A DNA stretch of 64,000 nt from the NCBI GenBank assembly GCA_036172245.1, contig JAYWIR010000081.1:124001-188000 (forward strand), given 5' to 3'. Numbering within the stretch: position 1 is the first letter of the stretch; each line of letters opens with the position of its first letter. This document shows, piece after piece, positions 32,700 through 59,300 of the stretch. Source of the stretch: Raillietiella orientalis (lineage: Eukaryota). Made by a program: the position numbers and the translations under genes. The notes beneath the pieces were generated by a model that saw only the letters and a list, made by a program, of their open reading frames with translations, was not told the origin of the DNA and ran no database searches.

Positions 32700-33287
32700 T
32701 CGCTCCCCTACCTCTTAGTTGATTGCTTTGCCGTCCTCATTCTTTGGGATCGTCTCAAATCGGCCCTTGGTTTACCGGATGGTGGCAACGTCAGTTGCGT
32801 TTAAGGTCTCTTCTTGGTGCGGGACGCTCTCAGTCCAGTGCTGCCTGAACTGCGGCGCCGCAGTTCAGGCAGCACTTTGCTGCATTCTTGGTATCGTGGT
32901 GGCCTGGAGTGATGCCGAAGATGAAGATTACATCGTGAGGGACGTCATCGAATATGCTGTTGGCTTGCTGCAGAGAGCTACATGATGGCTCTGTCTGGGA
33001 AAAATGAAAATAGAACTCGAAGGCATCCTGCAAAGGATGAGTTTTCCAAGCAGTTGCTGTGATCCCTTCCCGGTCCTCCTAACTTCTTTTTTTTTCTCTC
33101 TCTCTCTTTTTATTTTATTTCTGTTTTCTCCTATATCCCCCTTCACTGCCGAGAAGAGCCACACCGAGGTGCGTCCTGGTGACTTGCCCGTTCCGGTATT
33201 GCGTGGCCGTCAGTAAGGCCCAGTACCACGTTCTGTATTGACTGTAGAAATCTTTTTTAATAAACGTTCCGGCGTACCCGGGTGGAA
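32700..33287 (+). mobile_element. Family L 3' terminal fragment (end of zinc finger plus 3' UTR)
   Basis: ESLPYLLVDC...AALCCILGIVVAW...GILQRM; T-rich UTR; AATAAA 33259 plus hairpin. Confidence 0.82.
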
Positions 33288-34555
33288 TCGAGGAATCCTA
33301 GAGGAAGTTGATGGAGGGGAAACTGGTCGCAGAACTCTCGGACTGAGCGTTTTATTTTGTCCCAGTCAGCGAGTGTGTGCAGTTCACTTCCACGCAGGAA
33401 TGCACGCATATGTTCGCGCGCTCCTGCGAGTCGCAACCAGTCCCCCGGCAGGCGCCACGTTTCGGAGGGTGGACTTCTGTCTCGCGGATAATTGGTGAAC
33501 ACTTGCCGAGGGTGATTGGGCAGATTCGACGCAAGTGCGCCTTGAGTCCTTACCCGCGTGCACAGATGGTTATCGAGGAACACGTTGTCGATTCTGCGTC
33601 TCACGTCGGCTTCCGCGGCCAACAAGTTACGCGCGTGCATTGATACACACAACTCGTTAACCAGTTGTGCTCTTATGTCGGGCGCTTCCGACCGCAGGCG
33701 GACGTTGAAGTCTCTTGCTATCAGGTGCTCCAGCAGCACGCCTGCTTTGGCCAACCTGTCTCGCCGCAGGGCTTCGAAGAACGCAGTGCGTTCTCCGCGC
33801 CTTTGGCTGCTGCAGGGCGCGTATACGTTCGTGACCACGAGGTCGATCGAGTCGGACCACTTGAGGACAAGTTGCCCAACTGGATCTTCCTCGTCGAACT
33901 GTACACTGAGCAGTTTCTTTGCGACGGCTGGCTTCAGCAGGAAGGCCAATCCGCGGGAGTGGTCTCCACCGGATCGCCAAAGTAGCCTTCCCCCTGTGAG
34001 CCTCTCGATCTCCTGGAATTGTTCTCCCCTGAGGGCGTGAACCTCTTGAAGGAGTGCCAGGTCGAATGATCGCAGGTTGTCCTCCACGCTACGCTTTTTT
34101 CTTTCTCTACGCAGCCCGTTGACATTCCAACAGGCTATACGCCGCTGCCGGTAAGAGTCGATTCGACGCATCAAGCTAATGACAGTGGTGGCGATTTTGT
34201 AGCCGCCTCCTGTTCGGGAGGCGGCTGGTCCATGTGCACATGCATGGACTGCGTTTCCGCAACGACCGGATCAACGGCAGCCGGACAGAAGTCGATCGGA
34301 AGATCGGACCGGGCGGTTTCCACGATGGGATCCCGCGACCTCGTGGACATCGTCTCCTCGCTACCCGACCGCATTTCCTCCTCCTCAGCCTGAGGAAGAG
34401 CGAAACGCATAGTGTTGCGGGACTCCCAACCCGCCTTTGTCTTCAAGAGGGCTGCAGGGGAAGCGTTGCCGGCTTATGCCTCGGGCTCGAACGTTTCCGC
34501 TCCTTTGGCTTCCGCCGGGCGTCTCACAGCCTTCTTGACAGCCTTGAGAATCTGC
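33288..34555 (-). mobile_element. Element fragment M: ORF1 tail and open APE domain (34171-33288)
   Basis: 305-aa ORF with WNVNG, LQEVH, NVYAP, RDFN, RIDN; TGATG stop-start at 34169-34173. Confidence 0.88.
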
Positions 34556-34603
34556 CTTCTTTCTAGATGAAGAAGGCCAGGAGCATTTATCGGCAGCGCA
34601 GGA

Positions 34604-36767
34604 TTATCACCTGGGTGAGCCGGGGCTGTTATTACTAAAATTTCTTAATTAGAAAAACTTCTATAATGAAGTCTTGATTTGTTAAATAAAGTGTGTTTTC
34701 TTTTTCTATCCTTTCTTCAGTCAGGAACCGTAGCCCGACTGTCTTGAAGCACTTGTTCTTACCGTCTCGAAGTCCGATAAGTTCCTCCACACTGGCGAAG
34801 GGGCGGGAAAAACAAAAATAAAGAAAAAAAAGGAAACGCTTAGGAGGTAATGTTCTTCGGAAGGGGGAAGAAATGGAAGAAATCACGGCACCCCGTGAGG
34901 AGGCCTCTGCATCCGGTCACGGTAGCGCACGAGTGCCTGTAAACGTTTTCCAAGTCGGCGCCAACGGCAGGCCTTCTCTAAGGAGATGATTGCCCAGTGG
35001 ATGGCATTCCGACTGGCATGTCCTCTCCTTGACGCGGTTTTCTTGTCCAGTATTCCGCGTTTGCAAAAGAGCACTGCGACACACGGAAGCTGGCAAGGCG
35101 TCCCGCATCACGAGTCAGAAGATGTTCTTCGGGTTGCCCCGGGGAATGTTCAAGATCGACGATAGTCGGTCAAACATATCGCTTAGGGCAACGCACTCAA
35201 TAATCAGATGAGGTAAGGTTTCTCTTTCCCCACAGTCTGTGCAATTAGCATCCACACTCTCCGATGTCCAGTGAGACAAGCGCGCTCTGCTTAAAAGTCC
35301 CCAATGGAGCAGAAGCAACGGCGTCTCCTGCCACTGCAGGGGAAAGGGTGCCGTTATCCCACGACGCCGGATGCCACTTCACCTTCTTCGGAGGTACTTC
35401 GAGCAGCGCGCTCCAGCGTGAAAGTCCCTTCGGCGGGACACTCGCGGTACTATCCTCTGCTCGTTCCCTGGATGTCCACGTCTTCAATAATTTTTTCCTG
35501 CCTCCGATGAGGCAGGACACTTCCCACGATGCCTCCTGCTGGCTGTTTCGAACTTCCCTTAGGGAGGGGAGCACTGGGGCGAGAGAGGTAAAGGAGGCCC
35601 ACAGACGCTTCCGTGGACTTTTGACGATCTCCTGCAGTGGCTTACCAGCGTGCCTGCCTCTCCGGAGGCAGCAGAAGTCCTCCTCGCTGGAGCCGTTGAT
35701 TTTAGCTAATACGGAAACCGATTCCTGGAGCCAGGTTGTCCAGTCCGCAGGGATGGAGAAGATCCACGGATTGTCTCTCAACAGGGCAACCAAGTCCCGC
35801 AGCTGAAAACCACAGAGGTTAAGGCTGCGGTCGTTGGCTACTAGAATTCAGGTCAATCCAAGGCAGCCGTTTGCCCTGTGAGGCAGGAGTCTTGATGGTG
35901 CACACAAAGGTGCGGTCCAGTACTTTGCCACAAGGGCAAGTTTACGGAATTGGAGCTGTCGCTCTATTCGCTCCAGCGTCAGGAGGCCAAGTCCACCATG
36001 CCTGCGTGAAGCGCACAGGTCTTTAAGATGGACGCGGGGTTTTTGATTGCCCCAGAGGGCTTTTCTAATGAGGCCCCTTGTCCTTATACGAATTTGGGGA
36101 GGGGTGAGGCATGCAAAAAGTAGGGGGCGGAAGACGGAAGCCGCAAAAGCGTTTCACACCACGGCTCGTTCCTGCAACTAAACTTGCCGTCCCGGAACGG
36201 GCCGATAGCCAACTCCACCTTTTGGAGATGCTCGGACCAGGCTTCTGCAGTGCAGAAGTCCCCCAACGGAACTCCAAGGTACTTGATGTACCTGCCCGTG
36301 GGGATCCCCAAGCGGATCCAGTCCGACCGTGCTGTTCGCGATGTGTCCGTTAGAAGTAACGACGACTTCGTCCTGTTTACCTCAAGGCCTGTCTCACGGT
36401 GCAGCTACTCAAAGAAATCCTGGAGCGCCGATGCCGGAGTGCACCCGGGAAGCAGGAGCAGAAGGTCGTCGGCATGAGCCGACACGGCAGGCGTGCCGGG
36501 ACATCCGCTCGGCTGGGTTGCCAAAGAATCCCTGTATGCCCTCAGGACAAACTCAAACTAGATGCTGAAGAGCAGAGGGCTCAGGCTGTCATCCTGCCGG
36601 ATGCCGCGACGAAGCGGCACGCCTTACAAGTGACGGCCGCTGAAATTGATGGTTATCAGTGCGAACAGCCAGCAGGAGCGTAGGTTTGTCATTAAGACGG
36701 CCGGAAATCCCTAGCGTTTCAGGATCAACAGGAGGAGCTCCTGGTCGACGCAATCCAAAGCCTTACC
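34604..36767 (-). mobile_element. Family G element, 3' part (RT from KALDCVDQ to the 3' end)
   Basis: RQDDSLSP, HADD, KYLGVP, CTDCG...HL..EC; terminal hairpin 34604-34633. Confidence 0.88.
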
Positions 36768-41330: not shown

Positions 41331-42070
41331 GGCCGCGTACGGACGTGCTTTTGCGCCGCTAAGAGGTAAATTGACTCTTGTGAGTTTTGGTTCTGCTGTG
41401 CTTCTGTGCTGCAATGGGAGCAAAGAAGAACATCAGCCGCAAGAAGGGAACGCCAACCGTTTCTGAGATGGCTGCTTCGGCTGCTAGCAAGGAGCCTCTG
41501 TCCTCGCCGACGGCGAGGACATTCGCCCAGGACGCTGCCCTTGCGGATACGATGGGACCTTCGCCCGACAGCTCTGAGCTTCAGGCGTATGTAGCAAATG
41601 GCTACCCGCTTGCACTGAGGTATAAGGTAAGTTTCCTTATGCCTGAGAGGGTTGGGCGCGAGTTTGGCCAGGAACTTCAACAAATTGGAGTTGAGAAAGG
41701 CCAACTGGAGTCCATCATGCCGATGAGTGGTTTCGGCTACTAAAAGGTGTCCAGTAAGGACGTTTTCCTTACGTAGCGTTTGCTGCACACGCCGCTGCTC
41801 ATTCGTGGGCAGGAAATACTCCCTGCCACAACGGACCAGTCGTTCGTTGTCCGGCTCACTGGAGTGTGTAAGGGCCTTTCGGACCGCCAGGTCGTGGAGT
41901 CTCTTGAAAAATTCGCTACTGTCCACGCGCTTTGGAGGCTGCCAAACCCTTCTGTAAAGTTCGACGACCACCACAGCGGGCTCGCGTAAGTGCGAGTGAC
42001 GATGACGGATCGCCGTGCTATTCCCACGCTACTGCAGGCGGATAGATTGACGGTCCGCCTGTGGTTTGCC
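41331..42070 (+). mobile_element. Family H element, 5' part (5' UTR and ORF1 up to LWFA)
   Basis: GGACGTGCTT at 41341; ELQAYVANGY..LRYKVS homologous to B/B1 ORF1; resumes at 56321. Confidence 0.88.
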
Positions 42071-45000
42071 ACCCGGATATGCGGGGCATTTATTATTCTA
42101 ATTTTTTACAAAAGATAGATAATAAAGTCTTTAAAAAGATGTTTTCTGTGGAAAAACGCTTGGTTCTCCCACCTTGCTCGACATGTCAGTTGCCGGTGCA
42201 TAGACCGGTTAGGTCCATTACTGAGGCGCATGGGAAGGGAAAACTAGAACAAAAACAAACATTAAGAGACATAACGGGGAGGGAAATAGTTATATGGGGA
42301 GGAGGGGGGGCAGGGAAGGGATTACTGGGCGCCTGGGCCGGTCCTTCGCATCCTGTTGAGGATGCAGTCAAGTTCGGTTTTTATTGTGAAAGGTAGACGC
42401 CACCTTGTCGCCGTCCCTAAAGAGATCGTCGTCCAGTGGATGGCGTCCCTGCATCTTGGGCCTCTTCTTCTAGCGTGCCACCTTTGCACAATGCCGCGCA
42501 CGCAGCAGAGGCTGCTAGAGACGCAGGGGAGCGCAGGCCGTCACGGAGAAAGAGGCGACGGTAAATTTCCTTAGGGTCGCCTATTGGTAGAAGGAGGATT
42601 GGGGCGATTCGACTCCAGAGTCCATCCAGGGCGACACATTCGAGGGTGAGATGCGGAAAGGTCTCTCTTTCTCCGCACTCGACACAGCGGGCATCCACAT
42701 TCCCCAGTGTCCAGTGAAACAGGCGTGCTCTGCTTAACAGTCCCCAGTGCAGAAATAGCAACGCCGTCTCCTGCCACTTCAACGGAAGTCTGCCGCAATC
42801 CCAACACCCTGGGGGCCACTTCACCTCCTCCGGAGGTATTGCGAGCAGCTCTCTCCAGCGCGCAAGTCCGTGAGGCGAAACGCTCGGAGTGGCAGCGTTA
42901 GTGAGCTCCCTAGTCGTCCACGCCTTTAAAGGTTTTTTCCTGCCTAGGAGGTGGCAGGACACTTCCCACGATGCCAGCTCGTTGCTGCTCCTAGTGTTTT
43001 TTAGGGAGGACAGAACGGGAGCAAGGGGGTTGAAAGAAGCCCACAGAAACTTCCGGGGCGTGTTGATAATATCCTGCAGCGACTGTCGAACGTAAGTTCC
43101 TCGTCGTAGGCAGTTGTATTCCGCCTCGCTTGTGCCGTTGATCCTAGCCCACGCAGGAGCTGACTCCTGAAGCCAGGCAGTACAGTTCGCGGGAAGGCAG
43201 AAGTTCCAGGTATTCTCCCTCATCAGGACGACCATCTGGCGCAAATCGGGGCCACAGTTGGAGAGGCTGCGCTGGAAGGCCACGAGGATCGAGGACAATC
43301 CTTCGCAGCCGGTCGCTCTTCTGGCGAGAAGCTGTGCCGGATCGCACCATGGCGTCATCCATAAGCTAGCCGCAAGGGCTAACTTTCGAATTGTTGTTTG
43401 AAGTTGGATGCGCTCCAACGTAAGGAGGCCCAAGCCAACAAACCTGCGTGGAGCGCACAAGTCTTTCAATCGGACTCGCGACCTCGCTGTGCTTTCAAGG
43501 GCAGTCCTCAAGAGAGCTTTGGTCCGTCTCTGTATGATGGGAGGGGCGGGGCAAACAAAAAGTAAGAGGCGAAGAAAAGGGGCCGCGAACGCGTTTTACA
43601 CCGCGGCCCGCTTCTGCAAGTAAAACTTGCCGTTCCGGAACGGGCCGATCGCCAACTCCACCTTTTGGAGACGGTCGGACCAGCCTTCTGCAACGTAGAA
43701 GTCCCCTAACGGAACGCCAAGGTACTTGAAGCACCTGCCCGTCGGGATTTCCAAGCGGATCCAGTACGGCCGTCCGGCCCACGCCGTATTGTTTAAAAGT
43801 AGTGGTGATGCTAAAACGATGGAAGATTTCTTTCTGTTCACCTCGAGGCCCGTCCCGCGGCGCAGCATCTCAAAGAAATCTTCGAGCGCCGACGCCGGGG
43901 TGGACACGGGGAGCAGGAGCAGAAGGTCATCGTCGTAGGCCGACACGAAAGGCGTGCCGGGACACGAGCTTGACAGGGTTGCCAGAGTCTCCCTGTATGC
44001 CCTCAGCACCAGCACGAAGTAGATGCTGAAGAGCATGGGGCTCAGACTGTCACCCTGCCTCATGCCACGCCGAAACAACACGCCGTACACGTTCCGGCCG
44101 CTAAAAGAGATGTTTATTAGAGCGAAGCGCCAGCAGGAGCGCAGGTAAGCCCGGAAGACGGCCGGAAATCCCAAGCGTTCCAGGAGCTCCAGAAGCAGTT
44201 CCTGGTGGACGCAATCGAACGCTTTACGCAGATCGACTGCGACCGCAAGGGCACCGGGCGCGGCTCTTCCATGAAGGGCGTCCCCTGCCTGGTCAGAGGA
44301 CAATCCAGGATTATCTTGACCTCCCTGGTCTTCGCTTTGTTGCAACTGCCACCATGCACTGGCGAGGAACAGGTTGGCCTGCATGCTTTGTCCGGGAACA
44401 GCATGTGTCTGCTCCGTACTCACCACGGATTGCGCCACCCGTCCCAGTCGCTCAACCCAAAGCTTGGCAAGCAACTTTGCATCCGCATTCACTACTGTGA
44501 TGGAACGCCAGTTGCCTTCGTTGCGATTGTCTCCTCCTTTCGGCAGGAGACGTACTCTAGCTGGCCGGAACGATTTGGGGACGTCCCATTGTTCTCGGAT
44601 CAGCATGCAAAGCCGATGCAACAGGGTGGCCAGATCCGCCACCAAGCCTTGGTAAAACTCCACGGGAAGACCGTCTTCTCCTAGTGCTTTCCTCTTTCGG
44701 AGCTTTCCGATGGCGGAGACGATCTCCGCCATCGAGAAAGGCTACTCGTGTTCATGTGTCTGCTCGTCCTGTAGCGCGGGGGCGCCTTGCGGCAGCGAGC
44801 GCTGCGCCACGGCGCGCTCTTTTGTTCTACGCGCGTACAAGGAGGAGAAATAGTCCCGCAGGATGCGGTTTATTCTGGCCGGATCTGAACATTCCTGGCC
44901 TCGGGCGTCCATTAAGCTGGCCGACCCGGATTGCCAGGTCTGTCGCTCAGCCCCAGCTGTATACTCCGTCAGGCGTCGAACGTCGGGAGTCCTAGAATAA

Positions 45001-46422
45001 AGACGGGCGTGGTGGTATGCCAGGTCGTTCCTCACCCTTCGCCGAAACATGGAGGGAGACGGTTTAAGGGAAACTGGTCGCAGAACTCGCGGACTGAGCT
45101 CTTCAAGTCGTCTCAGTCCGCGAGCGACTGCAGATGGGAGCCTTGCAGGAACGAGCGAAGATGTTGCGCTGCTCCTGCGAGGCAAAACCAGTCCCCTGGC
45201 AAACGCCACGCTGTGAAGGCTGGACCTCTACCGCTCGGTTGTGTTTCTACCACGAGCCGGCGATGGTCGGAATGTTCGGTTGGAACTGCTCCTCGATTTC
45301 CCACCCGCGAACAGAGGTGGTTGTCGAGGAACATGTGATCGATCCACGTCTTCGTCTTGGCGTCACCGGCGAACAAGTTGCGCGCGTGCGTGGCAGCGCA
45401 CATCTCGTTGACCAGCTGTGCGCGAATGTCGGGCGCACCTGCCAGCAGGCGCACGTTAAAGTCCCCGGAAATGAGGTGCGCCTTTCGCATGTCTGCTTCG
45501 GCCAGCCAATCTCCCCGCAGGCCTTCGAAGAACGCAGTGCGTTCCCCGCGCCTGTGTCTCGTGCCAAGCTCGTACACGTTGGTCACGACGAGGTCCATCG
45601 CGTCGGAGCACTTGGCAACGAGCTGCCCGATTTGACCTTCCCCGTCGAAGTGCACGTCGCGCAGCGCATTAACGACGGCTGGCTTCAGCATGAAAGCCAC
45701 ACCGCTGGTGCGGTCTCTCCCGTTCTTGTATATGAGCCGCCCGCCTGCGATCCGTTCGATTTCCTAAGCCTCCCCTGCATGGAGCACGTGCGTCTCCTGC
45801 AGAAGCGCCAGGTCGAAGTCCCGCAGGCTGGTGGCCACTTTTCTCCTGTTGCCGTTGTCGCGCAACCCGTTGACGTTCCAACAGTTTACGCGCAGTCGCC
45901 GGCAGGAGAAGAGTCCACGCGTTGGTGGGTTTATGGTGTTTGCTTACCGTCCTCCGCCTGCTGTTCAGCAGGCGGGTGTTGTGTGTCCATTGCGACGGGC
46001 TGTTCCGCGCAAGGAGGTGGTCCGTCGGTGGTTGTGGTGGTCGTTGGAGGATCTCGCTTGGCCAGGAACGCCTACGGCGAGGAGTCGCGAGACTTCGCGG
46101 ACATGGCCTCTCCGTCGTCGTAGTCCGACCGCATTTCCTCCTCCGCCGGTGGAGGTGCGGAGCGCCGCGGGTTGCCTACCTTGCGGCTCGCTTTGCGCTT
46201 CGGGAGAGCCACAGCCGGAGCGTTCCCGGCTTCGGCTTCGGACTCGGAAGTCTCCGATCCTTTCGCCTCAGCCGGACGCCTCAAGGCCATCTTCTCGGCC
46301 TTGGGAGGTTGCTGGAGTATGGCTGCCAACTCTTCCGCCGCCTTGTTGAAGTCCCGGTCGTGGCGGCTCACGCTGGGCTCGCGACTTTGTCGCGGCGTGG
46401 GCGTTCGCGCGGCGGCGGATTG
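42071..46422 (-). mobile_element. Family I element, 3' part (ORF1 tail, decayed ORF2, 3' UTR)
   Basis: WNVNG, GDFN, SDH, DLRKAFD, YDDD, CVECG; terminal hairpin 42071-42094; ORF1 continues at 55260-56320. Confidence 0.92.
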
Positions 46423-49400
46423 TTCACACCCGGATGTGCCGGGGCATTTATTTCTTAGAAATAAAATAACAGAAAAAATGTCGCGTGGCGAACCCGAAGG
46501 TTCACCACTCCAAAACAGCTTGCTGGTTACCGGCTCCGTGCCGGAGAGGTCCTTCCGATGCGCGGGGATGGGAAATAAAGAAAAACAAAAGGAAACAAAA
46601 AGTTCAAATGTGGGGGGGAACAAATGTTGTAGGGGTGGGAGGGCGGGGAAGGGATCACGGTGCGCGTGGAGAGGTCCTCTAGATCCTATTCAGGATCCGC
46701 ACAAGCTGAGTCCTTTCAGCGCCCAAGTGGCGCCACTTGCAGCCACTTCGCGCGAAAACGCGAGTCCAGTGTAAGGCGTTGCCGGTTGGCTGACGCCTTC
46801 TTCTGGTGGCGTTCCAAGCCGCCACTATTCCTCTGATGCAGTAGAGGACTGCTACACTAGCGGGCGGGGACAAGGCGTCACTGCAGAAGAGGCGCCTGAA
46901 AACGTCCTTTGGGCCGCATCCGCGCAAGTACAGGATCGGCGCGAGACGATCCCATAAAGGGCGGATGGCACTGCACTCGATGAGAAGGTGGGGGAAGGTC
47001 TCTTTTTCCCCGCACCGGTCACAATAAGGATCCACAGCCCCCCGGGTTGTGTGATGAAGGCGTGCTTTGAATGGAAGTCCCCAGAGGACCACAAGCAACG
47101 CCACATCCTGCCATTCCAGGGCGAGGGATGCACTGTTCCAGGACGCTGGGGGCCACTTCATCTCCTCCGGAGATAGTCCGAGTAGCTCGCCCCAGCGTCG
47201 AATTCCGTAGGGCGGGACACTCGGCGTCGCAGCGTCAGCTAGCTGCCGAGATGTCCACGCCTTTATCGATTGTGTCCTCCCGCCTATAGTGCAGGACACG
47301 GTCCATTTCCCCTGCTCGCTACTGTCCCTGGCATTCACAAGGAAGGGCAGCACTGGGGCGAGGGGGGTTATCAAGGCCCACAGAAGCTTGTCGTGGGACT
47401 GCACGATCTCCTGCTGCGTCCAGCGGGCGTGCCTTTTCATACAAGTGTTCCTTGTGCCCGCCGGAACGTGGATCTTTACCCAGGTGGAGACTGACTCGTG
47501 CAACCAGGCGGAGTAGTTCCCTGGGAGGCAGGAGATCCAGGCGTTCTCCCGAACCGCAACGAAGATGCGTCGCAGCATAGAGCCACAGTATGGTCTTCTG
47601 CAGACGCGCGCAGACAGAAACGACAAAAGTCCGTCGAATCCGCAGGCTCGTTGGGCCAGGAGGCGTGCTGGAACGTACCAAGGCGTGTCCCACAATTCTG
47701 CCGCAAGGGCGAGAGTCCTGAACCTAAGTTGTAGTTCTATGCGCTTCAGAGTAAGAACGCCTAGTCCTCCGTCCTTACGTGGAGCGCACAAGTCTTTGAG
47801 CCTCACACGGGACCTCCCTTTGCCCCAAAGGACTGTCCTCAGGAGGCCCGCTGCTCGTTTTCGGATAAAATAAGGGGCGGGGCAAACAAAAAGTAGGGGG
47901 CGAAGGAGGGGAGCCGCAAACGCGTTCCACAACGCGGCCCGTTCCTGCAAGTAGAACTTGCCTTCTTGGAACGGACCGATCGCCAACGCTGCCTTTTGGA
48001 GACGGTCGGACCAGACTTCTGCTGCGCAGAAGTCCCCCAACGGTACGCCGAGGTACTTGAAGCACCTGCCCGTGGGGATCCCCAAGCGGATCCAGTCCGA
48101 CCGTCCAGGCCACGCCGAACCGACGAAGACCATGGACGACTTCGCCCTGTTCACCTCCAGGCCCGTCCCGCGGCGCAGCAACTCGAAGAAGTCCTCGAGT
48201 GCACTCGCCGGGGTGGACTTGGGAAGCAGCAGCAGAAGATCGTCTGCATAGGCCGACACGGCAGGCGTGCCGGCACACGAGCTCGGCAGGGTTGCCAGAG
48301 TTACCCTGTATGCCCTCAGCACCAACTCGAAGTAGATGCTGAAGAGCAAGGGGCTCAGGCTGTCACCCTGGCGGATGCCGCGGCGTACGGGCACGCCGTA
48401 CACGTGCCGGCCGCTGAAACCGATATTGATTGACGCGTTGCGCCAGCAGGAGCGCAGGTAAGATTGAAGCACGGCAGGGAAACCCATGCGTTCCAGGAGC
48501 TCCAGAAGGAGATCCTGGTCGACGCAGTCGAATGCTTTGTGCAAATCGACCGCGACGGCAAAGGCTCCCGCCGAGTCCATCCCACCCTCTGCCCGATGTT
48601 CTTGGTCAGAGGGGGGCGCGAGGCTTTCTTGACCGTCCTGTGCAACGCGTTGTCGCAACTGCCACCATGAGCTAGCGAGGAGCAGGTTGGCCTCCATGGT
48701 TCGTCCGGGAACAGCATAGGTCTGCTCGGGACTAACCACGGAAGCGGCCACCCGCCCCAAACGCTCAGCCCACAACTTGGCATACAACTTTGCGTCCGCA
48801 TTCACTACTGTGATGGGACGCCAGTTGCCAATGTTGCGTAAGTCTTCTGACTTCGGCAGGAGACGTACTTTAGCTGACCGGAACGAGGCGGGAACTTCGC
48901 CGTGTTCGCGGATCAGCGCACTTAACCTGAGCACCAGGGTTTACAGCTCTGGCGCGAAGCGATGGTAAAACTCCGCGGGCAGGCCGTCCTTCCCTGGTGC
49001 CTTCCTTCTCTTGAGCCTGTTGATGGCGGAGATGATCTCCGCCATCGTGAACGGTTCCGCCAATCTGGAACGGTCCTCCTCCTTGAGCGCGGGAGCGCCA
49101 TCCGGCAGCAGGCGCTGCGCGAAATGGCGCTCAGGTGTTAGTGGCGCGTACAAGGAGGAATAAAACTCCCGCACGATGCGGCTTACCTGGGCTGGGCTGG
49201 AGCGTTCTTGGCCCTGATGATCCAGCAGGCAGGCCGAGCCTGGCTGCCAGGCCTGCCTCTACGCCTCAGCCTTGAATTCAGCCAGGCGACGGACGTCGGG
49301 ACGCCGGGAATAACGGCGCGCCTGGAGGTACGCCCGCTCGTTCCTGACACCCTCACCGAAGCCCGGCGGGAGACGTTCCAGCGGAAACTGGTCGCAAAAC

Positions 49401-51702
49401 TCACGGACTGAGCACTTCATTTCGTCCCAGTCCGCGAGCGTCTGAAGCTGGAATCCTCGCAGGAAACAGCGTAGATGTTCCGCCGCTCCTGCGAGGCGCA
49501 ACCAATCCCCTGGCAGGCGCCATGTTTTCAGGGGAGGGCCCTTATTGCGCGGATGTAACTCGAGCACGAGTTGTGGATTGTTGGCACAGCTCTGCCGGGA
49601 GCGTTCCTCGAGTTCCCACCCGCGTGCACAGGTGGTTGTCGAGGAACATGTGGGCAGATGTTCCGATCTCTCCCGGCATCGCCGGCCAACAAGTTGCGCG
49701 CATGCATGGCTGCGCACATCTCGTTGACCAGCTGTGCTCGTCCGCTGGGCGCACCTGCCAGCAGGCGGAGATTGAAATCGCCCGCAATGAGGTGCGCCCT
49801 TCGCACGCCTGCTTCGGCCAACCAGTCTCGCCGCAAGGTTTCGAAGAACGCAGTGCGTTACTCGGCCCTGTGGCTGCTCACCGGAGCGTACAGGTTCGTG
49901 ACTACGAGGTCGATCGAGTCGGACCACTTGAACACAAGCTGCCCAACTCGACCATCCCCGGCGAACCGTGCACTGCGCAGTGAGTTGTCGACGGTTGGCT
50001 TTAGCAGAAAGGCCACTCCGCAGGAGTTGTCCGTTCCGTTCCTCCACAGTAGCCGCCCTCCTGCGATTCTTTCGATTTCCTGGACATCTCCCGGTCGGAG
50101 AACGTGCGTCTCTTCCAGGAGCACCAGGTCGAAATCTCGCAGTATGGCGGCTACATCTCGCCTCTTTCCGTCGTCGCGCAACCCGTTGACATCATAACAG
50201 GTGATGCGCAAGCGGCGGCAGAAGGCGAGCCCACGCCCTGATGCGTTTATTGTGGGGTGGAGGCGGCCTCCTCCCTTGCAGGAGGCGGCTTGTTGGCGGC
50301 CGTGACGACGGTCGGCTGTTCACACGGGAGCACGTCGTCCACAGCGACTTCCATGGGGCTGGCTTCCGGGACACGGATCGGAGAGGGGTCGCGTGGCGCG
50401 ACGCACATTGCCTCCTCCTCCGTGCCCGAGGACATGGCCTCCTCTATCTGCGGAGAGGCGACCCGTCTCGGGCAACCGGTCTTCTTGCCAGCCTTTCTCT
50501 TCGGCACGGCTGCGGAAGTAGAACAACCGGCTTCGGTTTCGGACTCGGAATTTTCCGGGCCCTTCATCGTTGCCGGTCGTCTCAAGGCCTTCTTTTTCGG
50601 CCTTGGCAGGCTGCCGTAACATGGCTGCCAGCTCTTCCGCGGCCTGCGCAAAGGTCGCTTCCGTTATGCGCGCCGCCTCCTCGCTTTCCGCACCGACGCT
50701 TTGCGCAGGCGCGACAGGGGCGGCTTCATCGATCGGCGCGCAGACGTCCTTCGCTGGCAATGCCGGAACTGCATTGTCGTCAGCTCATGGTGACGTCACT
50801 GCGGGCACGACCGGCTCAGGAACGACGGTATCGATCGCCTTTACCGTTACTTTCTTTGCGGCTCTGGCGATCGAGACGCGTTCGATCTTTACCGTACAAG
50901 CGCGGACGACCGGTTTCTGCTTTTTCGGCGCCGCCTTGTTTATCTTTTTTGCCTCCTTCTTCTGGGGCTTCTTCCTTTCTACCTTCTGCCAACCTTCCTC
51001 GTTCTCGGCGCTTTCTCCAGCTGGTTGTTCGCTGGTGGATGGCTGAGCAGCGGGTTGGTCGGCAGGGCGGGATTCTGCCAGTTGTTGGCTTCGGTCCTTT
51101 TCCTTCGGCGTCTCTTCCTTCCTCGCGCCTGACGGAACGGACCTTTTTCGGTTGGGGCACATCCGCCTGATGTGCCCCTTCTCCCCACAGCCCAAGCACA
51201 CGATGTTGGGGCATTTCTTTTTTAAATGCCCCGACACCTGGCAAAAGCCGCAGTATACGGGTTTCCCCACATACCACAGGTCGATCTCCTCCTCCCCGAC
51301 CTGCAGTCTGTGGGGTAGCCCACCCTCGGCACGTACCGTCACGCGCGCAGCGGCGTAACCACTAAATGCCCTGGTGTAACCCAGTACATTAGGTTTTGCC
51401 CACAACGCGTGAACGGTCCCGAACTTCTCTAACGATTCTCGCACGGCGCTCTTTGCCATGCGCATCGTTATGCCGGTCAAATGCACCACGATCGAATTGT
51501 CGGCCGTGAACGGGAAGATCCTTCTCCCGTTCACAGTGACCGGCAGGCGGAGCAGCTGCTAAGCCATCCCTGCAGACTTGCAGTTCAGCTCAACCAGCTG
51601 CCCGCCACTCCTTACCGAAAGTCCGAGGACTTCGTCCTCCGGGACTTTTAATTTTTTAAACTCGGCCGCGAACGACCGCAAAACCGCGGGGGAGTACAGC
51701 TC
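46423..51702 (-). mobile_element. Family F element, near full length, 5'-truncated within ORF1
   Basis: ORF1 with CGFCQVSGHLKKKC and CLGCGEKGHIRRMC; APE 50211-49180 with stops and frameshifts; open RT region; terminal AATAAATGCCCCGGCACATCCGGGTGTGAA. Confidence 0.94.
46679..48934 (-). CDS. Open 751-aa RT + C-terminal zinc-finger portion of family F ORF2 (longest intact frame; upstream APE disrupted)
   Basis: WRPIT, DLHKAFD, GIRQGDSLSP, YADD, KYLG, CDRCG...HLLIEC with no internal stop. Confidence 0.85.
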   Translation of the reverse strand: MLRLSALIREHGEVPASFRSAKVRLLPKSEDLRNIGNWRPITVVNADAKLYAKLWAERLGRVAASVVSPEQTYAVPGRTMEANLLLASSWWQLRQRVAQDGQESLAPPSDQEHRAEGGMDSAGAFAVAVDLHKAFDCVDQDLLLELLERMGFPAVLQSYLRSCWRNASINIGFSGRHVYGVPVRRGIRQGDSLSPLLFSIYFELVLRAYRVTLATLPSSCAGTPAVSAYADDLLLLLPKSTPASALEDFFELLRRGTGLEVNRAKSSMVFVGSAWPGRSDWIRLGIPTGRCFKYLGVPLGDFCAAEVWSDRLQKAALAIGPFQEGKFYLQERAALWNAFAAPLLRPLLFVCPAPYFIRKRAAGLLRTVLWGKGRSRVRLKDLCAPRKDGGLGVLTLKRIELQLRFRTLALAAELWDTPWYVPARLLAQRACGFDGLLSFLSARVCRRPYCGSMLRRIFVAVRENAWISCLPGNYSAWLHESVSTWVKIHVPAGTRNTCMKRHARWTQQEIVQSHDKLLWALITPLAPVLPFLVNARDSSEQGKWTVSCTIGGRTQSIKAWTSRQLADAATPSVPPYGIRRWGELLGLSPEEMKWPPASWNSASLALEWQDVALLVVLWGLPFKARLHHTTRGAVDPYCDRCGEKETFPHLLIECSAIRPLWDRLAPILYLRGCGPKDVFRRLFCSDALSPPASVAVLYCIRGIVAAWNATRRRRQPTGNALHWTRVFARSGCKWRHLGAERTQLVRILNRI

Positions 51703-51989
51703 CAACTGGGAAATCAGTACCAGGACCTCGTCGGCATCCTGCAAAGGATGGAAGCTCCACGTAACGGGCAGTGATCCCTTCCCGGCCCTCCAATTGACAA
51801 GTGTTTGTACTTTTTGTTTAATTTTTCTTTTTGTTTTTTCCCCCAATCCCATCCGTTGCCGTGGAGTGTCAAGTAGGTCTAAGCACCGACCACCCGACAT
51901 CTCCAGAGAACTATTGGCCGCAGCGGGGCCTTGTACTGCGAAGACTGTTAGTTTTTTTTCATAAACGCCCCGGCTTGACCGGGTGAAAA
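51703..51989 (+). mobile_element. Family N 3' terminal fragment
   Basis: ...DLVGILQRME..stop, TGATCCCTTCCC, T-rich tract, ATAAACGCCCCGGCTTGACCGGGTGAAAA. Confidence 0.82.
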
Positions 51990-52708
51990 TGTCGAACTGT
52001 ACGTTGCGCAGCGCATTTTCGACGGCTGGCTTCAGCAGGAAGGCCACTCCACGGGAGTGATTCCCGACTAATCGGTAAAGTAGCCTCTCCCCTGTGATCC
52101 TCTCGATCTCCTGGACGTCCTCTCCTCTGAGCGCGTGCGTCTCCTGGAGAAGAGCCAGGTCGAAAGGTCGCAGGGTGTTGGCCACGCCGCGCCTCTTGCC
52201 TTGGTCACGCAGCCCGTTGACTTTCCAACAGGCTATGCGTAAGTGCCGGCAAGTGGCGATTCCACGCATCACTCTGTTGATGGTGGTGGCGATTTTGTTG
52301 CCGTCTCCTGTTCGGGAGGCGGATGGTCGTTGTCCTGGTCGGCGGGCATCGCTTCGGCTAAAGGTGTCTCGTCGGTTCCTGGACGTTGTACACCAGTATC
52401 CTCTGGCGAGGCCCTTTTTTCAACCGAGGAGTCGCGTGACCTCGCGGACATTGCCTCCTCGTTCTCTGAGGGCATTTCCTCCTCCACCTGAGGGGGAACG
52501 ACGCGCCCAGAGTTCTGGGACTTCCGCCCCGCCTTCCTTTTCGGGAGGGCAATGGAGGGAGCGCTTCCGGCTTCCGCTTCGGACTCGGGTGTTTCCGGGC
52601 CTTTGGCTTCCGCCGGCCGCCTCACCGCCTTCTTGACAGCCTTGAGGGGCTGCTTGAAGCTGGCCGACACTTCCTCCGCCGCCTGCGCGAAATTCTTTCC
52701 GTCGCTGG
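51990..52708 (-). mobile_element. Element fragment O: ORF1 tail and APE N-terminus
   Basis: WKVNG, LQETH, GVAFLL...VQFD; TGATG stop-start at 52267-52271. Confidence 0.85.
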
Positions 52709-53080
52709 GTGAGGTGGGGAGAAGAACCTAGAGTCACCCCCGAATTACTTGTAGTCCCTTCACAGTGTGTGGACAGTTCGCTGCTCCCCCTTGCTTGGAA
52801 ACAAGCCGTGTGGCTCTTCGTTCACTGGCGTTTTCAGTGTAACGAGCGATGGCATCGTGTTTCCGGGGGGACTTGCTTCTGGACTGCGGTGTCCCACAAG
52901 GTGACCCTGGCGGAGGCTGGCAACAGCACCATCGCACCCGGAGGATACCGCAAGATACCTTCTGCAACGGTTCTTTACGCCTATCGGGCTGTCTACAAGC
53001 CAAAGGATTGCTACCGTCGGTTACGTTCGCGCCATAGTTTCAGCCCGTCAGGCGCTGGTAATCAACGGGCAGCACGAAGT
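52709..53080 (+). mobile_element. Family B-like ORF2 C-terminal fragment with internal deletion
   Basis: VTPELLVVPSQCVDSSLLPLAWKQAV..VHW.FQCNERWHR matches the family B C-terminus. Confidence 0.8.
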
Positions 53081-53643
53081 TAACGAATTTGTTATGCCTT
53101 CACTACCTGCAGTTATATTTCCGCTTCTTGATGCTGGAAAATTGATGCATTTATTACGTTTCTAGACGATATATTGTTGCTCTAATGTATTTCTCTAAAA
53201 AAAGAGATTACTTCCTCTTCAACTACGTAATACCATTTAGTGTTTTTGCATTTCTCGACAGACATTTTGCGTGAGATAATGAAACCATGCTTTCCAAAAA
53301 GCAAATAGCTCTCTTAATTTTAGATTCTGAACAATATGATATCTGTTTTTTCCAAGCCATGATAGGATTCTGAAACCATTTTCTGCTTTCAATTTTTTGC
53401 TCCAATAAATCATCTGCAAACAATTAATGCACATAAGACTGGGTGGATTTTTGACCCGAGGAGAATAACACAGAGGGCGCTTAGTATGTTAAAAGGTAGA
53501 TGTGCTAAGCACAAAAAGCAATCGGAGGTTCATTTCAGTTAGGATATGCTGCTCATTACTCTTTAGTTTGCACTAACTGGCCGCTGCTATTCTGTCATAG
53601 AAACAGATTGGTTTGACTATTTAGACGAATTTTGTAGCAATTC

Positions 53644-53982
53644 ATGGATGAAAAGTCTGCGGGACGAGTACTGCATGCTAATGCCAGAACAACAGAGGCA
53701 ATGCGTAGAGAGATACGTAATTGTAAAGAGAGCACGATAAAAACAGCAAAAAGATTTCATGTTAACCCAAAAACCGTTACGAAATGTGAAAAAAGAGAAG
53801 ACACAAAAGATCTTTCGATGGGGCCGAAAAAGATCAAATCCACAGTACTTTCTGAAGCTGAAGAGGAGGCAATAGTTGCTTTCAGGAAAATTACAGAACT
53901 ACCTTTGGATGATGTATTCAGGAGACCATTCCTTCATTTGACGAAATCAAGCTCACATAGATGTTTGCAGCGCCCGCTATAA
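53644..53982 (+). pseudogene. IS481-family transposase N-terminal (HTH) fragment; DDE integrase core missing
   Basis: G.VLH.NA.TTEA.RR.I....ES....AKR...NPKTV.K..KR....DL..GP....STVLS..EE.AIVAFR..T.LPLDD...HLT.SS.HRCLQR follows the alphaproteobacterial IS481 transposase pattern as I recall it. Confidence 0.85.
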
Positions 53983-54009
53983 TTATGACTTCAGAATGCT
54001 CATTCTTCG

Positions 54010-54234
54010 TCAGTTGTACAAGGCTTGCCTTCGAGAACGAAAAGTTGTTTTTGTAACTTCTAGATTTTTATGTTTATCCGCGGGTTTTGCGTCTAAAAGA
54101 ATGGTCTGCGCAGCTGCGATTGTTCCTTCCTGATCTCTCGTAAAAGAAATAATAGCAGGGTGGTAAGATTTAGTGTCTAATGACCAATTCTTGGCAATCA
54201 ATCTAACATCACCATATAAATGAATCTTTGACAA
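54010..54234 (-). pseudogene. Fragment resembling the region just upstream of the toprim domain in conjugative Tra/primase proteins
   Basis: HPAIISFTRDQEGTIAAAQTILLD...ADK...EV.K.TF recalled as similar to Rickettsiales/Legionella Tra-toprim proteins; not verified by search. Confidence 0.5.
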
Positions 54235-55259
54235 ATCTATTTTTCCTTACAATCAGCAATCAGCACATTGATCAAAATTTCGATGTATTTCTAAACTGTA
54301 TCTATTTTTCAACGAAGGAAACGTTTCATACGAAACCCTACAGCTCACAATTTTGACTCTCTCGAATCTCTTGATACAATGATATTTGATTGATGTAAAA
54401 TCACAAACAAGATATTACAAAAATTTGTTTAAAACTCGTCGTTTCGTCGCATCTGAAGAAGTTGATGCTTTTGCATCCATAACAGCCGATCATCCCACCG
54501 AGAACCTTTACACTCTTTAGCTTGTTCTAACCATATTTCTGGACCTTTTTCCAGCTTTTCCTTAGTCCGGTAGCAGTATTTTTCCTTACTAGGATGATTA
54601 GCAACAATCTCAAGTATCGGATTTTGCCAATCTCTTCAGCTCTTTGAAACACTGAGTGATTTTCAAGACCTTCATTCAGTAAGCGGTCTTTCATGATAAC
54701 TGAGCCTGCCGATGCATCGTCTTAGCATCTTCTGGTACTCCCCGCTCTTTGATCGACCAGCATCCATTTCGCTCGTTTGATTGCCCAAGGCTGCAGCGGT
54801 CCCTACCGAAAACCCAGGGACGTGATCACCAGAGGATTCATCTTCTGCAAAGCCTTTAGCAGCGCTCAAGCCATGGATGATCACATTTTCTGGAGCAATA
54901 CTCACCGTGGCAATTTCGAAATATGAAAGTAAGATTAAAAAAGTACCCAAAAAATGTTCATCGAAGCAGCAATCCTGGCGCCTTAACGCGCAAATCACCC
55001 TTTTTGCTAAATTTCCTCAGCGCAAATTCAGCCATAATGACTGTAAATGTTGTACTTGTTGGCTCACCCTGGAGATAATTTTAAAGTATGTCGGTTGTTG
55101 ATGTTGGTAAGCAATTGGGATCTTTAGGTGGAGAAGGTGTCGCTTGTCTTCCAAAGAGATGGAACAAGTTTTGGTTGTTTTGCATTTTGGAACTATAAGA
55201 CTAGTATTTGGAAGTTCATAAAGCAATTGTGCAATTATTAGTGATTGAATAGAAGGAAT

Positions 55260-56320
55260 GCGACGGCGGATTGAACAGCTGGCGTGACGTCACATCGCAT
55301 CGATCCGTCAGCGGAACGAGTATCGATCGCCGGCACGCTTTTGATGGCCACGCTGCACGCTTTGATTGTTGGGCGTGGCGCTTCCTCCACCTTGCCTGTA
55401 ACACCTCTTTCGCCGGTGCGGGCGCGGTTTTTTTAATGATTTTTATTTTACCTGTGACCAGCTGCCAGCCTTCCTCGTCGACAGTCTTTTCTGGGAGCTT
55501 CTGCACCGAGTCCCTTTCCAGCTTCGCGACTTTGTCGGAGCCGACGGCTGATCCCCTTTTGTGAGGTTTCTTACTATTTTTGCCTTCCCTTCCTTCTTTT
55601 GCGGAAGTTCCGGCGTTGGAGCGACGTGCATCGGGCACACCACTTTGGTGTGGCCCTTCGCGCCGCACGTTGAGCAAAATGCGTCCAGGCAACGCTTTTT
55701 CAAATGCCCGAACGACTTACAGTTTCCACAAAATTTAGTTTTCCCCACAAACCAGATGTCGAGGAACTCGTCGCCAATTTGGAGCTTGTGGGGAAGCTGT
55801 ACGCTTTCTCGAAGCGTTACAGGCGCGCCTACTCGCCTACTTAATGCACCATTCACTCTGAAGGTGTTAGGCTTTCTCCACATAGCGAAAACGCTTGCGA
55901 ATTTTTCCAGTTTAGCGCGGATGGCCTTCTCATTCATCCGCACTGTTAACCCTGTTAGGTGGACCACAATGGAGTGGTCCACCGTGTGTGGGAGTAAATT
56001 CCTGCCCTCAAATTGTACGGGCGTGCAGAGCATCTTGTGGGTAAAAGCTGCATCCTTGCAGATGAGCTCCGCCAACTGCCCTCCGCTCCGTATTGACATT
56101 CAAAGAATTTCATGGTCGGAAATGCCCTTCTTTTTGATGGAATTGACGAACTTTTGCGCCCTTAAAGGTGAATATAAATTTCCTACCTTGTACAGGAGGG
56201 CCGGATTGTAGCCCTCCTGGATGTATAATTGGATTTTGGCGGCGACATCGGACGTTTCCGCCGCTGCCACCGCGCTCCACGCCCTAGCCGTAGTTACGGG
56301 TTCAGAAGTAGTGGTTAGAA
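55260..56320 (-). mobile_element. Family I element, 5' part (ORF1, slightly 5'-truncated)
   Basis: ARAWSAV..GYNP.LLYKVG; CGNCKSFGHLKKRC and CSTCGAKGHTKVVC; links to 46422 through GCG(A/G)CGGCGGATTG. Confidence 0.87.
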
Positions 56321-59300
56321 GTTAGCCGGGCAAACGCGTGTATGCGCCGAATGCGGGCAGGAGGGTCTCCTCATTACGAAGTGTCCCTAGAGCGCTTGCC
56401 GTTACTACCACGAGCACGGGCACACTGAAGGAACGTGCCCGCAGCTCCTTTTAAAAAACAAAAAGCGGAGGAACGAATCGCTTTCCGCATCGCGTAGTAA
56501 TCGCCGCGAATCGAAAGAAAGAAACATCAAATTTTCGAAAAGCGTTGCGAAAACCGCGACCACGCACGTGTAGAATACTGTTTTTCGACCCCACAAAGAA
56601 GGGGTGAATAACACAAAAAAACTCGTCGCGGCAAAGCCTCCGGCTTTCGACTCGAACGAAGCTCGCGAAGGATGCGACCTTTCTACGAGACCTCCCAGTC
56701 AATTGTTGAATGCAGGAGACATTGTGCCGAAGGTCAAAGAGCCTCCTACTGTCGGTATCACTACTGCGAAGCCTCGTATCAAGGCGTCGACGAGCGACGC
56801 GGAATGCGGTCCTTCGCTCGATACGGGAAAAACGCGCCCGCGGGCAAAGAACACCGAGCCATCTGAAGCTACCGCGGCAAAGGTGCCCCAAGTGCCGAGT
56901 GCCAGGCAAACCACCAGTCCTCGCGCACGGACGCAGCGCCTACTGCCGCCAAGGAAGAAACTGCTAGGGCGAGCACAACCACTACAGCAGTGCCCCGAAC
57001 GGTCGCAAAGCCAACGCGCGAACCCTCCGACCTGGAAGAGGCAGCGCCTCTAGCGATCGCTAAAGGAGTTGCTTACGCCTTCGTGCAGGCAGCACTCCAA
57101 GAGGCAGCGAAGGCAACGCCTCTTACATCCGTGGAAGCATTGCCATCTCAGGATGGCAAAGATAACTGCGGCGCGAAGGAAGAAGGCAGGATGCAGGTGA
57201 GAAAGATCATTAGAAATAAACCATCAAGGTCTTCGCAGCTCTGTGTGAAGGTGAGTGGGCGAAAGAAACCCGCGAAACCTTCTCAGAAAAAGATTGCGAT
57301 TCTTTGCTCCTGCGCACTCGTTCTCTCGCGGATGGAGCGGGAAGCTGCTGCTGCGGCTAAAAGGACGAAAGTCCCAGCCGCAGTTACAGAAAGCGCTAGG
57401 AAACAGGCAGCCAACCATTTCCCTGATTCCGGGAAACAGCAGCAGCGCCTGGAAAGTTCTCGACTGTCCGATTCTGATCCAATTTCCGACAGAAAGAGCA
57501 CACAGCGGGATAACCGCCCGAAACCGCGGAATCGCCTCCCGAAGACCCGCAAGCGCGTGGTTGTCGAAGAGGATCTTTTGCCGAGGAGCAAAGAGGAGGG
57601 GATGGACCTCACCTCAGAGCTACCGGCAACAAGCAAGGCGGCTTCGAATGGAGATGCCCCCTCTCCAAAATCTGCTGTTCTGTCTCGTGACCACTTACCG
57701 GACAAGGCGAGAAACCTGTGCTCACGTTCCCAGCCTTAATGCAGGAAGTCGCCTCTTTTCTTTGATTCAGCGTAGCCTGTTGGAACGTCAATGGACTGCG
57801 CAGAGACGGAAAGAGGCGCGAAGTGTCAGACACCCTGGGACATTTCGATTTCGCGATCCCTCAGGGGATGCATTACATCTCTGATGCGGAGGTTGCCGAA
57901 ATCAAACAGCGCGCGGCTGCCACCATGTACTGGCGAGAAGGTTCTGCACAATCGTGCGGAGTCGGTTTTCTCGTCAATAATAGGATGGTGGGAGCAATGC
58001 GCAGCGTTCGATTCGACCAGGAAGGGCGAATGGGCCAACTTGTACTCAAGTGGTCAGATTCATACGACCTCGTCGTAACGAACGTCTACGCGCCGAGCGG
58101 CTTTCATCGGCTTCTCGAAAGAATCGAGTTCTTCGACGTGCTGGAGAGTCAATGGCTCAGAAACTCCGGAGCCAGAGTGGCGCATCTCGTCGCAGGGGAC
58201 TTCAACGTCCACCAGCTTTCCAACGAGACGCGGTTCCTGGCGAAACGGTCGCGAGTGGAAGAGGTATGCGCGTCGGTGCACAGGCGTAACTTGGAAGCCG
58301 GCAGGCCTGGACTGGAAAGGTGCGTGGTTCACCTCTACCTCGCTGAGCACCTACTCTCGCCAGTGGGAAGGACAGGCAGGGTGCCGTCCACGTTATCGGA
58401 CCATGATAGGCTGGAGTTCGAGCTACTCCCGTTGGGCAAGGGACCTGCAAACAATGTAGGGAGAATGCCGGCGGATTGGCTGAGTCATTCGGAAGCGGCG
58501 GAGCATCTTCACTAGTTCCTCCGCGGCTTTGCCATCCGGGAACTCGCAGACTGGGACCATCTTAAAAGATCGGTTCCCGAGTTTTGCGACCGGTTCCCCC
58601 TGCACCTGCTACCACGCAGCTCCGGGGAAGGCGTGGCAAATAGCAGAGCATTTCTGCAGGCGCGCACCTTCTCGAGACGTGCGGAAGTCCGGCAACTCGC
58701 AGAGTACAAGGCGAGGGCCGAGCGCCAGGTCTGGCAGTCTGGAGAGGCTATTCTGCTCGACGACGAAGGCCGGGAATGCGCGGCTCCTGCCGAAGTGCGG
58801 CGAGCACCAAAGCGTCACTTCTCCTTGCTCTACGCTAATTCCCCGACGGAAGGTGTCCTCTCCGAACTACTTTTGCCGCGGGCTGTACATGGCATCGGCG
58901 AGGAGGAAAGCGCTCGTCTCGACGAGCCCTTCACGTTGGAGGAAGTTTCTTCCGCCATCGCAGGACTCAAGAGACGGAAGACGCCAAGTGAGGACGGACT
59001 GCCCGCGGAGTTCTATCCGAGCTTCGCGGCGGAACTCGCCCCACTGGTGCTTAGAATCTCGACGCTGATCAGGGTGACGGGCGATGTCCCCTCTTCCTTC
59101 CTCTCAGGGAGGGTGCGTCTCCTTCCGAAAGGAGGGGATCTGCGCCAACTCAACAACTGGTGTCCGATCACATTAGTGAATACGGACGTCAAGTTGTTTT
59201 CGATGCTGTGGGTCACGCGCTTAGGGAATGTCGCGGAGTTCGTGGTATGCCCGTAGCAGTCTTACGCTGTACCAGGTAGATCCATGGATGCGAACCTTCT

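Follow-up and report, generated by a model that had tools for sequence, protein, structure and literature searches.

Endosymbiont-like DNA within the target-site duplication of a LINE: a candidate 5' transduction in Raillietiella orientalis

Transduction by long interspersed nuclear elements (LINEs) and chimeric retrocopies of the U6/L1 type are both well known, and human LINE-1 is known to transduce flanking genomic DNA on its 5' as well as on its 3' side. Endosymbiont DNA transferred to nuclei is usually regarded as an inert fossil, eroded or interrupted by host repeats. Passages of the report on the Wolbachia 'nuwts' of Drosophila ananassae describe host retrotransposons sitting inside the insert (PMC4299567), and passages of that on Volvox carteri describe rickettsial gene-like sequences adjoining host multicopy DNA and a fragment of the Jordan transposon (PMC4324946). 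Here, we describe a locus from the genome assembly of Raillietiella orientalis (contig JAYWIR010000081.1), at which a LINE of family F and an island of bacterial-derived DNA lie within one target-site duplication (TSD) that splits another LINE, of family I. An earlier note, made from the sequence of this stretch, had read the arrangement as endosymbiont-like DNA copied by LINE machinery. Our analysis supports that reading through an island that is bacterial right up to the repeat, a canonical F 3' end, collinear host halves and inner joints of the kind that nested elements leave. We consider it likely that LINE machinery copied the bacterial-derived DNA through RNA, by transduction or by template switching (the two taken jointly).

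The insert, its duplication and the split host element

The analysed stretch, hereafter the window, comprises 64,000 nt; all positions are window coordinates, and comparisons were made inside it and against outside collections. The window is eukaryotic (57% GC) and consists almost wholly of decayed LINEs of the apurinic/apyrimidinic endonuclease (APE) type. The insert is bounded by two 14-mers that match at 13 of 14 positions (Table 1), just as the earlier note had quoted them, and the similarity is absent from the 10 nt on either side of both copies. At two mismatches or fewer, the motif occurs twice in the window, each time as one of these TSD copies. The motif is GC-rich and simple, and since 24 of 100 shuffles also yielded at least two approximate matches, this count is weak evidence. 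The position of the 14-mers is stronger evidence than their number, both boundaries being fixed independently of the repeat. On the left, 46423 is the 3' terminus of F, common to a second F copy ending at 32699; on the right, 55259 is the final base that aligns to a Rickettsiales genome (G153, a single contig of 1.59 Mb), and the right 14-mer starts one base later. The chance of at least 13 matches in 14 at a fixed pair of positions is 2e-7 when calculated analytically, and such matches were found empirically in 32 of 4,997,747 random position pairs of this repeat-rich window. As in LINE 5' transduction, the duplication is flush with both boundaries and encloses the whole insert (8,837 nt), 3,560 bp of which (51700-55259) are non-F DNA lying 5' of F, contiguous with it and unrelated to it.

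The flanks of the insert are collinear, same-frame halves of one minus-strand LINE, which bears out the claim that a family I element was split. The right half (56222->55447, minus strand) aligns to F ORF1 (open reading frame 1; 51744->50971) with 44% amino acid identity over 211 residues (tblastx E 3.7e-61), and the left half (46350->45602, minus strand) corresponds to the linker and endonuclease of F (50652->49918); as the two match successive segments of F on the same strand, the halves are collinear. The break point falls in the poorly conserved ORF1-ORF2 linker, and the 14-mer is read in the same frame by both halves (...QSAVA / QSAAA...). Residues preceding the right 14-mer align to the end of F ORF1 (score 47, reached by 17 of 500 shuffles), while those following the left 14-mer align some 20-30 residues further along F (score 78, reached by none of 500). 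Judged by homology to F, the halves abut in frame and without overlap, and by the same homology the 14-mer would be single-copy in an uninterrupted family I. The 3' part of the host element matches RVT_1 at E 3.4e-22 and is 89-90% identical to another I copy, at 27274-30095; the analogy of the F terminus would place its own 3' terminus near 42066. No TSD of the host element itself was found upstream of its ORF1 to mark the 5' end.

The F element holds a reverse transcriptase (RT), an AP-like endonuclease (a match below the cut-off) and an ORF1 with CCHC knuckles, the features of an APE-type non-LTR (long terminal repeat) retrotransposon, and is decayed, with in-frame stops and at least one frameshift; its Atlas clusters (RVT_1 and zf-RVT) are taken as a lead only. 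It shares 92% identity over 2,609 bp with F copy 2 (30093-32699), which finishes on the same 3' bases against an unrelated flank. The insert had been said to start with the F 3' terminal hairpin: position 46423 is indeed the canonical F 3' terminus, whereas the 'hairpin' amounts to a 5-bp stem of ordinary energy (z -1.1, with 25 of 200 shuffles folding equally well) that is not conserved in F copy 2 (z +0.7). A terminal motif, made of an A-rich run, a short GC stem-loop and a few further bases, was observed in the four families F (46423-46462 and 32660-32699), N (51956-51990), I (42066-42105) and B (9781-9820). It suggests one 3'-end recognition signal common to the four, with a poly(A) tail absent.

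At its other end, F is without the conserved N-terminal stretch of ORF1 that is present in I and in an element at 11739-12746 (as judged upstream of 51699). In this respect the statement that F lacks its own 5' end stands, although 51699 may be a normal 5' end. In the one public sequencing run found (X1; 0.11 of sampled words, with short contigs only, placed at 88% likeness on 45500-56500) a contig has F base 51699 abutting 12 nt of the TSD, with an F 3' end after them. This joint comes from a single contig (side 40, placed at 88% likeness) and is to be read with care. Base 51699 thus has two different partners, which suggests that F elements of this lineage regularly have their 5' end there. 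The contig has a head-to-tail order (F-12 nt-F), such as would arise if the same target had been hit twice or by unequal exchange between duplications.

Further observations were made on F and its relatives. Over 49858-51558 a single frame runs through F ORF1, the linker and the beginning of the endonuclease, which are separated only by in-frame stops at 50785 and 50320; the F family may employ one frame in which a stop parts ORF1 from ORF2. A second I-F chimera occupies 27274-32699, where I copy 2 breaks off in its 3' untranslated region (UTR) at 30095, some 157 bp short of the I terminus, and is followed directly by F copy 2 (30096-32699), which is 5'-truncated and lies on the same strand. 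The remaining I 3' UTR is absent after the F 3' end, and no clear duplication was seen; this chimera may represent another F with upstream DNA, or template switching. Elsewhere in the window, two 661-bp stretches (18500-19160 and 24416-25076) are 98% identical, far closer than its other repeats, which suggests a recent duplication or a young element.

The LINE scraps and the bacterial-derived island

Between F and the island lie three LINE scraps (N, O and a B-like piece), whose presence had been reported before and whose limits are those of Table 1. N aligns inverted to the F 3' UTR with conserved blocks and has about 61% identity to 32988-33287, starting from 51699; its terminal motif ends at 51990 and its 5' side is cut by the F 5' end. 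O is 69-80% identical to 45644-46343 and 33893-34548, with homology starting at 51991. The B-like scrap is 71-72% identical, in reverse orientation, to 10234-10648 and 19602-20015 (where B codes on the minus strand), and stops about 450 bp short of the B 3' end. At 51699/51700 the F 5' end lies against an internal point of N, at 51990/51991 the intact N 3' terminus lies against the O endonuclease, and at ~52700 the 5'-truncated end of O lies against an internal point of B. At each inner joint, the terminus of a younger element meets an internal point of an older one, with strands that fit throughout, a pattern that we take for an old nest in the order B>O>N>F.

Beyond the F 3' end, the counterpart halves of N, O and B are absent, and O is here without its 3' end; hence the nest was not built at this site, and construction in place was rejected. 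It has evidently been copied here from elsewhere as one piece. Twin priming was likewise rejected as the source of N, which is about 60% like F's own 3' UTR and represents a 3' end rather than a more-5' segment. For a 286-aa ORF across the O/N/F joints no homologous protein was found at E<=1e-5, so that this search gave no sibling copy of the insert.

The AT-rich island proved to be bacterial, as had been proposed: five of its segments match G153 at 68-89% nucleotide identity (E 5e-86 to 2.7e-10), and its GC content stands at 38.4% against 59.7% in the rest of the insert. The segment at its right edge retains this similarity up to 55259, and the bacterial homology stops exactly at 55259/55260. 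The insert therefore ends in the island, as the earlier note held, and 55100-55259 is not an F 5' UTR; the edge segment (55035-55259) would instead be the 5' end of the retrotransposed unit. It carries the start of an AMP-binding enzyme gene, which matches 19 of 30 amino acids of a G153 ORF (E 4e-10) that is itself AMP-binding at E 5.5e-59.

Among the remaining segments, the 3' end of phaC, encoding a polyhydroxyalkanoate (PHA) synthase, aligns to G153 with 68% nucleotide identity in the long alignment (54333-54600) and 82% in its core (54465-54600). The DNA downstream of it aligns with 73% (54196-54295) and 89% in the core (54249-54295), and the two matches are syntenic in G153. At the protein level, the phaC fragment shares 70% identity over 50 residues with a 595-aa G153 ORF (E 3e-20) and was matched in 78 of the 151 genomes of Cyrtobacter's order, with G153 the best by far and the next at 52%; a homologous-protein search with the fragment against longer proteins gave no match. 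The weak TraI/DUF7146-like fragment was matched in 5 of 151 Rickettsiales-order genomes (best E 2.4e-7). The name dnaN (beta clamp) is our reading of the G153 ORF, as distinct from a family scan result. Matches to the curated bacterial models (IS481, PHA synthase, TraI) all lie far under the full-length cut-offs, as expected for fragments. The IS481-family piece has ~92 codons and scores 35.3 bits against a cut-off of 224, its homology stopping near 53973; it is a fragment and not an element. Its identity to IS copies of Rickettsiales, Holospora and a Cytophagales genome reaches 70-78% in amino acids and as much as 82% in nucleotides.

In species-representative genomes, 26 relatives of the transposase fragment were obtained from 156 candidate stretches. 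Best-segment amino acid identity was 49-84% in 25 of them and 70-84% in 24 of those 25, which come from a Cytophagales metagenome-assembled genome (MAG) and Ca. Sarmatiella mevalonica (7 each), Holospora curviuscula (9), and Ca. Cyrtobacter zanobii and a Rickettsiales MAG (1 each); the remaining relative is a weak match in a Nitrospirales MAG. Cyrtobacter and Sarmatiella belong to the Rickettsiales, and the taxa named first in this list are intracellular symbionts of protists. Near-identical IS481-family copies were thus observed in unrelated intracellular bacteria, namely Rickettsiales, Holospora and the Cytophagales MAG (1.06 Mb), which suggests exchange of insertion sequences (IS) among symbionts with common hosts.

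When the island was compared as DNA with other genomes, four gave noise only and five more matched the IS alone. For 54196-55259, G153 was the sole match at E<=1e-6 among 400 scored genomes of its order (one genome was unscored, and two candidates were scored per genome). The loci in G153 that match the island lie at ~111, 270, 448 and 1,083 kb, and their counterparts are truncated and juxtaposed in the window; this scatter and truncation argue against contaminating bacterial contigs. As assembled, the island adjoins a LINE scrap on one side and the TSD on the other. Its joint with the B-like scrap, where a few bases are common to the window, the B copies and the G153 dnaN, looks as in end-joining.

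Searches of the island for further content gave little. Neither the island as DNA nor, as protein, its 114-aa ORF at 54672-55016 had a match in the plasmid collection, and the candidacy of this ORF as a continuation of the AMP-binding gene found no support (E 0.73). The stretches 53141-53638 and 54601-55034 received no assignment. Pfam returned sub-threshold matches only for ten island ORFs, no Rfam family was found over 46000-56500, and no tRNA over 52500-55500. The sole other low-GC stretch of the window (34501-34950) proved to be an A-rich LINE 3' UTR and not bacterial.

Table 1. Features of the locus in window coordinates (nt, nucleotide identity; aa, amino acids).
Feature	Position	Strand	Details
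TSD, left copy	46409-46422		Adjoins F 3' terminus
TSD, right copy	55260-55273		One mismatch to left copy
Host LINE I, 3' part	42066-46422	-	ORF1-ORF2 linker, endonuclease, RT, 3' UTR
Host LINE I, 5' part	55260-56320	-	ORF1 with CCHC knuckles
LINE F	46423-51699	-	5,277 bp
F 3' UTR	46423-46678	-	
F RT	46679-48940	-	RVT_1 E 3.2e-23, 82.9 bits (cut-off 29.6)
F endonuclease	~49528-50319	-	Exo_endo_phos E 1.7e-4, 21.8 bits, under the 24.5-bit cut-off; frame broken
F ORF1 with CCHC knuckles	50785-51558	-	zf-CCHC E 4.3e-5, 23.8 bits (cut-off 20.8)
Scrap N	51700-51990	+ (antisense to F)	3' UTR and intact 3' terminus of an F-related LINE
Scrap O	51991-52691	- (F strand)	ORF1-ORF2 linker and first ~75 endonuclease codons of another LINE
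B-like scrap	52713-53079	+ (antisense to F)	Internal ORF2 C-terminal fragment
B/island junction	53076-53081		4-5 bp microhomology (GAAG/T), window vs B copies vs G153 dnaN
Island	53081-55259		2,179 bp; bacterial-derived, 38.4% GC
dnaN-like fragment	53082-53140	+	86% nt to G153:110859-110917, inside a 384-aa ORF
IS481-family transposase, first ~92 codons	53639-53973	+	NF033577 E 8.9e-9; 53640-53963 82% nt to G153
TraI/DUF7146-like conjugation protein fragment (weak)	54010-54246	-	TIGR02760 E 2e-5; DUF7146 E 0.0028
phaC (PHA synthase) 3' end and ~220 bp downstream	54196-54600	-	TIGR01838 (class I PHA synthase C-terminus) E 1.8e-8
AMP-binding enzyme gene start (~50 codons) and ~115 bp upstream	55035-55259	-	80% nt to G153:1083315-1083538

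Origin of the insert

We reason that the locus may most simply stem from a single target-primed reverse transcription (TPRT) of an 8,837-nt read-through RNA, i.e. a 5' transduction of 3,560 bp with 2,179 bp of bacterial-derived DNA, an account that we hold with about even confidence. At a donor locus elsewhere, Rickettsiales-like endosymbiont DNA would have integrated into an old B-family LINE, already fragmented and scrambled and joined through a few bases of microhomology. Insertions of O into that same B element, of N into O and of F into N would have given rise to the nest. A transcript starting in the bacterial DNA or upstream of it would then have run through the remnants of B, O and N and through F, ending at the F 3' end. 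The LINE reverse transcriptase would have recognised this end and nicked the ORF1-ORF2 linker of family I, and the copying of the whole RNA by TPRT would have left the 14-bp TSD. Because two of the scraps, B and N, run antisense to F, transcription of a genomic mosaic is a simpler explanation than serial switching between sense LINE RNAs.

Several points weigh against this account. Within the window there is no intact family I ORF1, nor a second copy of any inner junction or of a donor locus, and the alignment that places the right host half just before its 14-mer is of moderate significance (the 17 of 500 shuffles given above). The junctions at ~53080 and 55259 are known from the assembly alone. 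Coverage of the island and scraps in X1 is near nil and has no bearing on the junctions either way; its contig over 46158-46450 has 28 nt on the F side, under the 31 needed for bridging. In metagenome contigs, a 24-mer across the B/island joint had 0 matches, and an 18-mer conserved with G153 was met at 11 loci, none of them alike beyond the 18-mer. The X1 contig in which F ends at 51699 weighs, moreover, toward a template switch at the joint of F and N.

Such a switch, which seems to us rather unlikely but is a serious rival, would mean that the RT copied a full F RNA up to 51699 and then jumped to a second RNA from a separate, unrelated locus bearing the N-O-B-island mosaic. The 3.56 kb would have been added before the cDNA was joined, so that the insert would still stem from one LINE-mediated event in one TSD. 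Should F naturally have its 5' end at 51699, the F/N joint could equally be the switch point: the junction in X1 falls at the same base and suggests a natural end of the F RNA, where switching is expected, and chimeras of LINEs with other RNAs are documented (PMC13174262). Against this, a long read-through RNA from a nested locus would still be needed as the second template, the joint would resemble a normal insertion joint (an F end against internal N) only by coincidence, and the X1 joint comes down to one contig at 88% likeness. Where a template switch would give a discrete sense 5' partner, the partner found here is a mosaic with two antisense LINE pieces and nest-type joints; the base at which F ends, however, is an F end in X1 as well.

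An origin at the DNA level in two steps, which we hold to be very unlikely, would have a plain F insertion make the TSD, with the 3.56 kb inserted between the F 5' end and the right repeat through capture of DNA or cDNA fragments by end-joining, whether afterwards or while the joint was being resolved. In its favour, at least five bacterial fragments are concatenated in scrambled order in the island, the joint with B has microhomology as in end-joining, and X1 apparently contains an F whose 5' end touches the repeat directly. This origin, however, obliges the addition to fall exactly at the border of F and TSD while leaving the TSD intact, and N ends at its exact 3' terminus while O is without a 3' end, signatures of older genomic TPRT and not of random fragments.

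A misassembly that joined a bacterial contig or unrelated repeats, or a chance or homologous match of 14-mers between two different family I fragments, is the least probable account of all: the region is extremely repeat-rich, the junctions come from the assembly, and a motif so GC-rich and simple recurs readily in shuffles, but a misjoin would not recreate a 14-bp TSD flush with a LINE terminus and with the last bacterial base (chance ~2e-7 to 6e-6), the flanks are collinear and in frame, and a contaminant contig would not show the bacterial genes in this truncated, scrambled state.

Significance and comparison with known systems

Bacterial DNA inside a LINE TSD implies transcription in the germ line, at least as read-through, and duplication through an RNA intermediate. 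It offers a mechanism for the growth in copy number and the dispersal of transferred DNA by the host's own mobile elements, and a possible route for placing such DNA beside host regulatory sequences. If the transduction account is true, it predicts that the donor carries the 5' part of N downstream of F and, beyond the island, more bacterial DNA and the last ~450 bp of B. We can also conceive, speculatively and as something unlikely, that the AT-rich bacterial DNA (the former upstream region of a bacterial gene) supplies the transcription start of a composite mobile unit ending in F; the bacterial DNA would then be its working 5' part, amplified through RNA. Such 'retro-LGT' (from lateral gene transfer, LGT) would, if true, be a general route for the expression and spread of transferred bacterial DNA in the eukaryotic germ line. 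Narrow keyword searches of full texts, which do not prove absence, found no report of endosymbiont-derived DNA as LINE cargo.

As in LINE-1 transduction, one TSD encloses the LINE together with unrelated DNA, with the element's own 3' terminus at the edge and the extra DNA 5' of it on the same strand. Unlike there, the carried segment is long (3,560 bp) and is a mosaic of three LINE scraps and bacterial-derived DNA, F has, in place of a poly(A) tail, a conserved short stem-loop motif (of ordinary energy) at its end, and the donor is one that we infer. With the chimeric LINE retrocopies produced by template switching, the locus has in common a 5' partner and a LINE 3' partner in one duplication; it differs in that the 5' partner is a nested genomic mosaic with antisense LINE pieces, not a discrete cellular RNA.

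The integrants of D. ananassae and Volvox, so far as the cited passages of those reports describe them, resemble the locus in presenting AT-rich, pseudogenised DNA of alphaproteobacterial endosymbionts amid host repeats. In those passages, the bacterial DNA is invaded by host elements, or its region is duplicated at the DNA level, whereas here the bacterial DNA was apparently copied through RNA as the cargo of a LINE. LINE transduction and nuclear endosymbiont DNA are each known; what appears new, at this single locus, is bacterial DNA as probable LINE cargo.

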